Below the pieces are notes generated by a model. The model was not told where the DNA came from, ran no database searches, and saw only the letters and a list, made by a program, of their open reading frames with translations. Position numbers and translations under genes: made by a program. Below, one piece after another: positions 34,368 through 46,457 of a stretch of DNA of 64,000 bases. Each line of letters begins with the position of its first letter. Position 1 is the stretch's first letter. The stretch comes from Octopus vulgaris (taxonomy: Eukaryota): positions 105,090,001 through 105,154,000 of the forward strand of contig OX597817.1 in NCBI GenBank assembly GCA_951406725.2. The letters are read 5' to 3'.

Positions 34368-34647
34368 ATTATTATTATTATTATTATTATTATTATTATT
34401 ATTATTATTATTATTATTATTATTAGTATTATTATTATTATTATTATTATTATTGTTATTATTATTATTATTATTATTATTATTAATATTATTGTTATTA
34501 TTATTATTATTATTATTATTATTATTGTTATTTGTTATTGTTGTTATTGTTATTATTATTATTATTATTATTATTATTATTATTATTATTATTATTATTA
34601 TTATTATTATTATTATTATTATTATTATTATTATTATTATTATTATT
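34368..34647. repeat. (ATT)n microsatellite with GTT variants
   Basis: Direct reading. Confidence 0.95.
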
Positions 34648-35227
34648 CCTTCCGACGCCGATGGACGTACGTGAATCAGCTCCGTGAATTTGACACCAAT
34701 TTCATTGGAAATCATTTGATAAGTTTGAATATTTTTTAATATTTTTGTAGCCAAACCGACCGGCTTCTTGCGGAGCTCGTCGGTTGGGCGAAATTTTGCC
34801 CCATTCGGGGTGAAATTACCGTCTATCCTTTTGAAATTGACATTTTTTGCACACACACATTACAAAATGGCACTGAAACGAGCTGCTGGCTCTTCCCTCC
34901 TTCTTGCAACACCCCCCTACAAGAACAAAAAAAAATAACGTCACGGGTTACGTACAACCCATTTCAGGCCGTAAAAGGCAACAAAGCTCCTCCTTCCGAA
35001 CCGGAGAGCACGCGCTCGGTTCAAAAGGAGAATGCATGCCAGGACGTCGCGTTCGACGTCACTCTTGATTTCCCCCTCTGCCTTCAACAAGTGATGCTGT
35101 ACCGAAGGGGGAGGTAAAGAAAATTATAACAGACACAAACACAGACAAGAACCAACAAAAAACTGTAAAAGCTTCTAACGATTTTGCTTCTGCTGCGAAG
35201 CAAATTTCGGAAGATGTAGAAATTACA

Positions 35228-36758
35228 ATGGAGGACATAAAAATGGCACAAGATTTGTTGAGAAAGGAGGGGAACAGTGTTTTCCTCAACACACCTCAAC
35301 AACTCACACAAGAAACAAGCAAAAGAACAATCTTTTATAAAGTCTTCGAAAAGAAAACTAAAAGATTGTTTAACGCCACACCACAACAGTTGGAGATGGC
35401 TCTGAAGCCCATTTGGGGCCAGAAGAGCTATGTGACAAGAGGGAAGCGATTTGGAACCGTGGAGGTTCGCTTCCCAACAGAGGAGCTTGCAAGGGCAAAC
35501 GCCATTTCGCCCTTGCAAAATGAACATTTGTTCCTCGTCCCGACGTACCTCGGGCGTAAGGTACAAAAAATTACTATAAGCACAATACCCCCGAACAGAA
35601 AATCTCATGGCTAGTGGCGGCTGTCCTCTATGGCATAGAGGACACTGCCACTATTCTGAATGTTCGGAGGGTACGAGAAAAGAACTGGTCAGGCATGGGT
35701 ATTCAACTGCTGGTACAGATCCAGCAGGAAAACATCAATGCCATACCTGACTTTGTCATCTTGCTGGATGGGACCAGGCTAAATGTTATTGTAGAGGGGC
35801 GAAAGCCAAAATGTTTCCTCTGCAGTAGCGAAAGCCACCTAAAAAGGGACTGCCCCATTCAAAAAAGAGAATGGAGGAGTATAGCAAGAGGCAGCAGCAA
35901 CAACAACAACAACAACAACAACAACAACAACAACACAAGCAACAACAACAGAAACAACAAAAACAGCAAGAAAAACCAAAGGCTGCCACACCACCAACAC
36001 AATCACCAACACCAGCACCAAGACGAACAACACCACCTCCAACAACAACAACCACCACCAAACCAACACCGACAACCACCACCAAACCAACACCGACACC
36101 AGTACCTCGAAGGTCGACAGCAGCGACATCAACAGTAACAGGAGCAGCGGCACCACCGATACCGGCGGAACCTAAAACTTTTCGTCCTGCTACTGAAGCG
36201 GACCCCTCAACCATTCCTTTGCCGGATGAAGAGATCTCGGATTGTGCGAGCTCGGATTCCAACAAAGGAGAATGGAATATAGTACCTCCAAAAAAGAAAA
36301 GGAGGAAAAAACAAAAAGTTTTACAGGGGAAGCACGAACAAATAGTACTTCCCAACATCAACAACAACATCAACAACAACACACACTCACAACAACAAAC
36401 AACAACAACAACACTTTCGACACCACTACTGCCACTACCACAGACACAAACAAACACAGACACAATTACAGACACGATTACAGCAGTGAATACAAGAAAC
36501 CAGGAACTGGTTGAGTATTTGAAAAACAAAACAAGCACAAACATTACAGATTTCATAATACCTACACACAACACACCACCAGCACACATTCTCACAATAA
36601 AAATAAACAAAACAGTGTACAATGAAATAAAACAAATATTCCCTAACGATGTGGGATCGTTAGGGAAAAGTTTCTCTCAGAAACTTTACAAAAATATTAT
36701 TGAAGCACCCGTGCAAAAGCACAAGGGAGCCACGCCCACCACCAACAACAGTAAGTAG
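35228..36758 (+). pseudogene. Tx1 ORF1 of copy 1, frameshifted at homopolymer runs
   Basis: Same protein as 41111-42631 but split into three ORFs by a C5 vs C6 run (about 35588) and an A6 vs A8 run (about 35861). May be sequencing error. Confidence 0.8.
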
Positions 36759-45600: not shown

Positions 45601-46106
45601 TCCAGAGGTCTCTCGCCTGGCAGTGCTACCGAGGGGCTCTGCCTGTTCGAGATAAACTCTACCGGCACGGAAGTGCCGTCAGCCGGGCCTGCCCGAGGTG
45701 TTGCCAGGACGACGAAACCGTTCTGCACGCACTCGTCCAGTGCCCGAGTATTGCTGAAATATGGGTTTATGTCGAACAGCTACTGTCACGTGTAGGACGG
45801 ATCCGACTATCGGCCGAATCCATAGTGAAGATTGCCCCGCCGACCTCCTTTAACAAGGAGGGCGAGGCCGTTTTCTTGTGCCTTGTGGCTGTGGCGAAAG
45901 AAGTCGTGTGGTGGACTCGTTTGAAAGGGCTAAAGTCAGACACTTTCCTCTTTGGTCAAGGCCTCATCAACTTTTTCAAGTTTCACTTGAAAAGGAAGAT
46001 GAGGTTAGAGAGGAAAGTGCTGTCCGATAGCAAGTTTTATGAAAGGTGGGTGAATTGTGCGAGACTGGCCTGTATAAATGGACCAGTTCTCAGGTTTCGC
46101 CTGTGA
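42672..46106 (+). CDS. Tx1 ORF2: APE + RT + zinc finger (1144 aa)
   Basis: As copy 1, with three residue differences seen (GASV/GASD, RALTG/RAPTG, LSALH/LSVLH). Confidence 0.95.
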   Translation: MANLRIGCLNVRGLGSPWKQGHLLNDLRFHDVDIAAISETRLSDPQELAALFGGYEIFLSPCRPGAGGGGTAVLFRKGLDLKIRTVFLDPEGKLVVLDVDGSDGGAFRLLAAYAPTGAGQSDYFKRLEVFLGTSRTLVLVGDWNAVLDERFDRVGRGASDRRGGGCKSLANLLGRFQLSDRFRLDNPNVPMWTWTNRIGSSRSYLDRVFCRPADKDSVGCPQFHLVEYTDHKLVICTVDLDRLHRQGPGYWKLNASLTACKAYRDRISLLVKRAPTGAIINNNWWFALKRAIRVESIRYSKTLAIERRKRERDLVKKLDEALDTGIATDVLAARLALDQHFDAKHEGCVVRAKARSLSGEGTRAARWARVAEAKRGNRATIRSLVDQNGREVTQPKQMCTVLQRHFAQLFGTSGGTDTNGTDFGVYLDGLPQLSDSEAECCEGPISAWEVQEAMKSCTRGRSPGLDGLPYELYFSMPDLFADLLANVYCNWQQNGRIPAFVCRGVVALLKKDPNKGDVIGNFRPITLLNAELKILAKVLAKRLALVVDKLVGGTQTCAVPTRSIHDNLHLMRYIIERVGNDAGAGGALINLDQSKAFDRVDHRYLAAVLKAAGFGPVFRGWIAALYSNICSVIRVNGHLSEPFDISRSVRQGCPLSSLLYILTLEPLLRKLEALRGIPRDLGGGNSVSAYADDVTVVVSSHRHIGLIGETLNQYEAVTGAKINAEKSVGLQLGTWRGKPMPSNSVVGRWTDGPVKLLGVWFGPDLQVDKNWEEVTSRVARLTQKWAERKLSLKGRAEVANAYIASVIYYRLTVVPCPDRWLAKLVHLLFDFLWKGQVPLVRRSICCQRPLNGGLGMPWLLLRRHALRLRHLKRFLDGEQVWSSFVRRDFPQLVSLTELQTWIKRRPRKGAWHLECRQALSVLHQAGNAVGYSSTLAFYRGLVEEKCDDVLGETLGVEDDELSGLFGRTFGPGPMDNFQRSLAWQCYRGALPVRDKLYRHGSAVSRACPRCCQDDETVLHALVQCPSIAEIWVYVEQLLSRVGRIRLSAESIVKIAPPTSFNKEGEAVFLCLVAVAKEVVWWTRLKGLKSDTFLFGQGLINFFKFHLKRKMRLERKVLSDSKFYERWVNCARLACINGPVLRFRL

Positions 46107-46457
46107 TTTCAAAGAAAAAGGTAATGTAAAAGGAGAAGAAAGGGGACTCTCTACACCCCTTTTTGACCAGGCTCCCGTTGGCTTTTGTAGGGTTTTTTCC
46201 ACCGGGAACATTTCGAGACGTCTCCCCCTTTTGGGAGTTTTTCATTGTTGAATTTTATAAGTTGTTATAAAGATTTTTACTCGATGTTTTAAAAAAACGG
46301 ACAAAACCCTTTGTAACCTTTCGTCCTGTCTTGTCCCTTCATGTAATCATGCGTGTCAGCCCTTGTGGCCAATAAAAAAGAATTGATTATTATTATTATT
46401 ATTATTATTATTATTATTATTATTATTATTATTATTATTATTATTATTATTATTATT

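Follow-up and report, generated by a model that had tools for sequence, protein, structure and literature searches.

What is it about a run of ATT units that it should lie at both ends of two long retrotransposons, and is such a run a target that the element found or a tail that it brought along? The question is raised by a locus in the window analysed here, a stretch of 64,000 nucleotides of Octopus vulgaris DNA, in which two copies of one element of 5.85 kb each, 99.5% identical in pairwise comparison, stand head to tail on the forward strand. Copy 1 (34648..40511, 5864 bp) and copy 2 (40533..46385, 5853 bp) are both full length and have an identical start, CCTTCCGACG, and an identical end, AATAAAAAAGAATTG. 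Copy 1 is preceded by a left tract of 93 imperfect ATT units, the last 32 of them pure (34368..34647, +), the copies are separated by an (ATT)7 spacer (40512..40532, +) that would represent a target-site duplication, and copy 2 runs into a right tract of (ATT)24 (46386..46457, +). Poly(A) is absent at the ends of both copies, and an AATAAA motif ends 9 nt short of the end of copy 1 (40497..40502, +), with its equivalent in copy 2 at 46371-46376. The original prediction of two full-length copies with shared termini, set in in-register ATT and lacking a poly-A tail, is thus confirmed on re-reading of the coordinates and tracts. Ten substitutions and 8 indels separate the copies, and at three of the 10 substituted sites both alleles recur among several other members of the family (34/44, 23/56 and 73/6), so that the window holds two real copies and not one copy read twice. 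A 5'-truncated fragment that is old (76-79% identity) but belongs to the same lineage begins 7 nt past the right tract (46465..46887, +), and on its far side from copy 1 the left tract is flanked by a 5'-truncated LINE of a different type in the opposite orientation.

What kind of element is this? In copy 2 the frames of both ORF1 and ORF2 are open. ORF1 has 668 stop-free codons (40625..42631, +), with 506 amino acids from the first in-frame ATG at 41111; this ATG lies 162 codons into the open frame, and translation may start at a non-ATG codon. A 22-codon upstream ATG frame (40752-40820, +) overlaps the stop-free frame. The ORF1 product contains a CCHC knuckle (a weak Pfam zf-CCHC match, E 0.07) and a Q/T/P-rich linker. 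ORF2 encodes 1144 amino acids (42672..46106, +) with Pfam matches to Exo_endo_phos (10-231), RVT_1 (514-759) and zf-RVT (980-1031). Copy 1 has an ORF2 of the same length (36797..40231, +) and the same order of APE endonuclease, RT and CCHC, the domains having been scanned on the near-identical copy 2. Its ORF1, counted from the first in-frame ATG (35228..36758, +), is broken in the assembly by three one-base homopolymer losses, at 35071, 35587 and 35860. Two of these shortened homopolymers are shared more widely, one by 19 and the other by 15 of the 81 full-length copies, and the frameshifts may reflect sequencing error or recurrent slippage. The earlier description of the copies as intact therefore stands for ORF2 in both but for the whole element only in copy 2.

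Judged from its sequence, the element is an APE-type non-LTR retrotransposon of the L1 group, since its ORF2 combines an N-terminal APE, an RT and a C-terminal CCHC and finds its best PDB match in L1 ORF2p. This solved human relative aligns over residues 4-861 with an E-value of 6e-51, far ahead of R2, with the catalytic residues of the APE in register and an endonuclease hairpin loop of L1 length in the alignment. Other features of non-LTR elements are also present, including the upstream ORF1, 5'-truncated copies that share a common 3' end, and target duplications, two of which are visible. Membership of the Tx1 group is likely, an assignment drawn from the domain layout and from unnamed homologues rather than from a tree of named families; the preference for a target sequence, here ATT at the junctions, is a trait of the Tx1 type. 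The close homologues of ORF2, 73% and about 40% identical, are unnamed, as are all the homologues P0001-P0013, while the Atlas clusters bear generic names only; in a quick 61-row RT tree the query falls in a 14-row branch (support 100) composed wholly of unnamed proteins. A conserved RNA fold sought at both element ends found no support (z-scores of -0.7, 0.4 and -0.3).

Whether the association with ATT extends beyond the window can be judged from a census of junctions across the genome. Of 146 exact 3' ends, 140 are followed directly by (ATT)3 and the remaining six are separated from an ATT tract by a single variant unit, so that all 146 lie in ATT. At the other terminus each of the 70 exact 5' ends was retrieved: 67 lie behind ATT, two behind (CTT)n and one behind an assembly gap. 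Among the 67, at least three pure units precede the head in 66 cases and an interrupted ATT spacer in one. With 36 of the 70 heads the sequence directly in front is another copy; of the 33 non-tandem heads that can be read, 31 follow ATT, in runs of 4 to 40 or more units. This is not the work of chance, as only 0.35% of random positions follow three or more ATT units (200 kb taken from 20 round-number positions). It had been foreseen that the claim would fail if most 5' flanks were non-ATT and the repeat a tail only, and the heads give the opposite picture. The counts at heads and tails support the original prediction that the family targets ATT/AAT repeats, the ATT being more than a 3' tail.

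The 5'-truncated copies are less uniform. They were drawn from 100 of the 146 exact 3' ends together with the best 40 matches per terminus, and 47 were left after removal of flanks containing N, copies of less than 88% identity and one chimeric copy. Among the matches listed, 22 of the 47 have at least three ATT units within 30 nt upstream against a background of 0.7% under the same rule, an enrichment of about 65-fold (p about 6e-35), with the opposite-strand repeat upstream in two. No ATT run lies within 30 nt upstream of the other 25 of the 47 listed, and this is the chief result against strict specificity. One of the 25 has 19 units just past the scored 30 nt, many carry long interrupted tracts on the 3' side, and three have junctions that fall exactly where the ATT tail of a host repeat usually starts.

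Was the tract there before the element? Two sites speak to this directly. At C13:20419000 a 21 bp duplication, ATC(ATT)6, is visible, and at C5:120205700 one of 19-20 bp; in both the variant ATC unit stands on each side of the element. In these two copies the variant unit at the start of the 3' flank is a duplicate of one in the 5' flank; what directly follows the element is a copy of the target rather than a tail derived from RNA. These were the only two informative duplications kept among all copies scanned, most of the automatically called ones being rejected as artefacts of identical heads, and a few sites in imperfect tracts, such as C27:17643453 and C9:57000000, lack a duplication. A further indication comes from L099, where a truncated copy is followed by (ATT)6 but not preceded by an ATT run. 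Run X2 has a contig that runs into the element at this site, and one contig of run X16, from a related organism (organism B), joins position 1405 to 7222 with 27 letters between and is read as the empty allele. Of the 27 letters, 11 are accounted for by unique flank, and the other 16 plus a shared AT are what (ATT)6 would require; this is an argument from length at a single site, the bridging letters being unseen. Taken together, the duplications and the empty allele favour a pre-existing ATT target, and outer 3' tracts, which are often long and interrupted, resemble old microsatellites. On this reading the truncated copies without 5' ATT have had their target deleted, for which the direct backing is the one empty allele and the three host-tail junctions.

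The pattern observed across the family is one orientation and one phase relative to the repeat, both junctions in ATT, no poly(A), two duplications and arrays of mixed composition. We consider it probable that this is a young two-ORF APE LINE family of the L1/Tx1 group that lives in (ATT)n and likely inserts by target-primed reverse transcription (TPRT) after a nick on the (AAT)n strand, and we infer that its endonuclease is specific for ATT/AAT. In terms of TPRT chemistry, the nick would be made in phase on the AAT strand (AAT/AAT), at a T-A step as for L1, and the nicked (AAT)n strand would then prime at the 3' end of the RNA. A second cut some 15-21 bp to the right would duplicate 5-7 units, leaving a usable target on both sides of every insertion. 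A new insertion beside an existing head, or inside a spacer of 5-6 units, would yield a new spacer of 5-6 units, so that arrays would lengthen by one copy per event. With 5'-truncated insertions the left-hand repeat units would often be shed at joining. Several points count against this account: the 25 truncated copies with no ATT in front, the two full-length copies behind (CTT)n, the small number of informative duplications and the few imperfect sites that show none, the fact that both frames are open in only five of 81 full-length copies of this assembly, and an endonuclease hairpin loop that has the length of L1's and not that of Tx1L's.

The alternative that survives best, though we think it improbable, places the specificity in RNA-DNA pairing, with a transcript that reads into (AUU)n, loose nicking at T/A and extension of (AAT)n primers only. 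It can draw on the AATAAA just short of the element's end, which points to cleavage inside the ATT run even though no poly(A) is inserted, on the L1-like length of the endonuclease hairpin loop, and on SINEs that have a similar tail and insert at non-ATT sites with duplications of 14-19 bp. It sits poorly with the two copies whose 3' flank opens on a variant unit duplicated from the 5' flank, and with the L099 empty allele, which implies that no ATT was added.

How, then, do the arrays arise? At least 11 copies stand in a row on C50 and six on C47. The spacers within arrays are short, 36 of 53 being 5 or 6 units long, whereas 100 outer 3' tracts have a median of 12 units (p 1e-10); the difference persists when each of 26 arrays contributes its first spacer only (p 4e-5). 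Neighbours are often of different sub-lineages: the nearest relative lies strictly inside the same array for only 14 of 42 array copies, some neighbours are 343-366 substitutions apart, and in two such mixed arrays every copy has a relative on another chromosome that differs from it by 4 substitutions. From the spacer lengths and the mixed neighbours it follows that the arrays mostly grow by serial insertion, and these observations, with the duplications, support the earlier proposal that each insertion regenerates its target and so builds tandem arrays. In about nine arrays the copy with the greatest divergence or damage is the 3'-terminal one, and in about three it is the 5'-terminal one, a count made by eye with no formal test, which suggests that arrays grow in front of old heads.

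Less probable still is that the arrays, the window pair included, derive from tandem duplication, unequal exchange, read-through dimers or mis-assembly. A few sites do fit such an origin, in that the two copies of the window are closest to one another by a narrow margin (8 against 9 substitutions), a pair at C29:15640500 differs by 4 substitutions and is remote from all other copies, one mixed pair of the 12 tested recurs on two chromosomes, and one spacer contains a repeat of 84 bp of outer flank; a contribution from tandem duplication or from the copying of dimers is thus possible. The long array on C50, a small contig, is also divided into two opposite orientations by an inverted stretch of low identity (62940-67751) that looks like an assembly fold-back. 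As a general account, however, this origin is opposed by the scarcity of nearest kin within arrays, by arrays that mix lineages hundreds of substitutions apart, by the three sites segregating in the family at which the window copies differ, and by the spacers themselves, which unequal exchange predicts to be as variable as the outer tracts and which are not. Least credible is the notion that the element brings (ATT)n along purely as a 3' tail, as many CR1/RTE LINEs do, and that the association with tracts is passive: this would account for ATT at every 3' end and for the roughly half of truncated copies without 5' ATT, but it is largely refuted already by the readable non-tandem heads that lie behind ATT (31 of 33, after 4 to 40 or more units), by the upstream enrichment at the truncated copies listed, by long, interrupted outer tracts like old microsatellites, and by an L099 empty allele with room for the tract.

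Within the family the smallest nearest-neighbour distance is 2 substitutions over about 5.4 kb. Among ORF2 variants found in at least three copies, 48 are synonymous and 22 are replacements, against 162 synonymous and 270 replacement among private variants; shared variants that are mainly synonymous, with private ones that are not, are the pattern expected if functional sources are copied. In this assembly ORF2 is open in 33 of the 81 full-length copies, ORF1 in 16 and both in five, copy 2 included, and the element is present in sequencing runs of three organisms from 10 studies. Among the contigs listed for this locus none spans the junction of tail, (ATT)7 and head, at which the search passes over repeats, and no RNA run is among the listed carriers, which has no bearing on expression. 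The family appears to have been recently active, and we infer current activity from the near-identical copies. The two halves of the element differ in their variation. ORF2 is almost uniform among full-length copies (a median of 28 differences in 3435), whereas positions 1-1200, covering the 5' UTR and ORF1, occur in very different types (a median of 198 differences in 1200 nt), suggesting that the 5' module has been swapped repeatedly.

The left tract has a second occupant. The LINE on its far side (33374..34367, -), a 5'-truncated 3' end whose translation shows CCHC and restriction-like endonuclease motifs, is one we take, from these motifs, to be Dong/R4-like; its 107-aa piece has no Pfam match. 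It is young; at 12 of 12 fetched loci (L361-L372) it ends in (AAT)n, and several truncated copies have (AAT)n at the 5' side as well. Further 3' ends of this LINE lie in the window at about 29105 and 29569 (-), and a perfect (CAT)1138 of 3.4 kb (29917-33330), which may be a real expansion or an artefact of assembly, adjoins the Dong-like tail. Elsewhere in the window, 49660-50358 (+), 54612-56104 (-) and 9384-10235 (-) hold an RT fragment of unrelated type, which matches Pfam RVT_1, and other ORF remnants for which Pfam gave nothing significant; these are probably decayed mobile elements.

A SINE group is linked to the family by its tail. It is abundant, with 4309 exact heads and 13,932 exact tails of one type, and its 3' tail resembles the last 40-70 nt of the LINE, scoring above every one of 200 shuffles at 19 of 30 loci. 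The SINE loci (L291-L320, L373-L392) have duplications of 14-19 bp, mostly at non-ATT sites. That the group as a whole shares the ATT target was considered and rejected, as one of 30 unselected loci lies behind ATT and an earlier figure of 27 of 64 was biased towards loci near the LINE; about five of the 30 unselected loci are of an ATT-tailed type. A search for a partner LINE of the non-ATT tail gave a LINE fragment at one of 20 loci, which does not establish ownership of the tail, and a sister Tx1-like family may mobilise the group. A more far-reaching picture, which we put forward as speculative and rather doubtful, is that new copies are steered to the few units directly before existing heads and so build head-to-tail arrays of at least 60 kb, that the family has converged on the target of Dong while using the opposite strand and an endonuclease of unrelated type, and that the 3' tail of this lineage also drives the SINE with its roughly 14,000 exact-tail copies.

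Why should such a family matter? Microsatellite-targeting APE-type LINEs have been described from few families, and according to a review the mechanism of their targeting is not well understood (PMC3812793). Near-identical copies, the open frames of copy 2, a three-base target and measurable duplications make this a system in which enzyme specificity can be set against RNA-primer pairing, and the locus shows two unrelated LINE types using one microsatellite on opposite strands. For use as a precise integration site the target is not unique enough, as (ATT)5 tracts occur roughly once per 6 kb (34 in 200 kb).

With regard to known systems, Mutsu targets 5S rRNA and Dewa targets tRNA. The Tx1 targets found in print comprise (TC)n, (TTC)n, (TTCC)n/(TTTC)n, U2, transposons and telomeric repeats (PMC4494074, PMC3812793, PMC3747384, PMC4758252, PMC10088271, PMC4640811, PMC1950540, PMC13282606). 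In the parts of this literature covered, no ATT/AAT-targeting Tx1 element was found, though one may be listed in Repbase, in Dfam, by Kojima & Fujiwara (2004) or in the supplementary data of PMC4494074. An automated annotation of Octopus vulgaris counts 13 L1-Tx1 families as recently active, with 421 insertions (PMC13282606), the portion of that paper covered containing no analysis of targets or arrays, and libraries of this type may hold a consensus like that of the present family.

Human L1 ORF2p, the best solved relative, shares the catalytic residues. L1 differs in ending in poly(A) and in its target, TTTT/AA, which is a loose one, and the octopus family has a CCHC knuckle in its ORF1. The endonuclease of Tx1L, shown to nick its target by itself, is reported to have a hairpin loop of 11 residues (PMC1950540), whereas that of the octopus family is L1-like in length. 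With Keno the likeness comes through distant relatives, the only kind that a metagenome scan returned. Rfam, applied to 40 of 80 of these loci, gave two U2 matches and one U1 match: homologues at L134 (4675-4885) and L137 (5815-5977), 27-29% identical, run into U2 snRNA in Keno-like fashion, and a homologue at L143 (9202-9356) has the U1 match downstream. In the quick RT tree, which includes no named references, the query branch joins U2-inserted Keno-like rows weakly, at a support of 55. These homologues differ in their A-rich tail, their U2 target and their separate branch, and insertion of the Keno type is rejected for the octopus family, whose flanks, read letter by letter, are ATT tracts. 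Dong, of the R4 clade, is specific for TAA microsatellites (PMC3812793) and so shares the microsatellite, as does the Dong-like element in the tract of the window. That element, however, carries motifs of a restriction-like endonuclease, with (AAT)n in the sense orientation, whereas the octopus family has an APE and (ATT)n, and membership of the Dong/R4 clade, with its single ORF and C-terminal restriction-like endonuclease, is ruled out by the N-terminal APE and two ORFs.

The closest parallels are the fish Tx1 elements Kibi, in (TC)n, and Koshi, in (TTC)n, beside which stand crocodilian Tx1 elements in (TTCC)n/(TTTC)n (PMC4494074, PMC3812793). Compared by description only, Kibi, Koshi and the octopus family are alike as APE-type LINEs in a short microsatellite, of the Tx1 group in the fish and probably so in the octopus, and two octopus copies even lie behind (CTT)n; they differ in target, (TC)n/(TTC)n against (ATT)n, and a target of the Kibi/Koshi type is rejected with (CTT)n before two of 70 heads and ATT at 146 of 146 exact 3' ends. 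The way of life of a Tx1-type LINE in a microsatellite is thus already known, while an ATT target was not found described for the Tx1 group, and the family represents not a new kind of system but one analogous to Kibi and Koshi.
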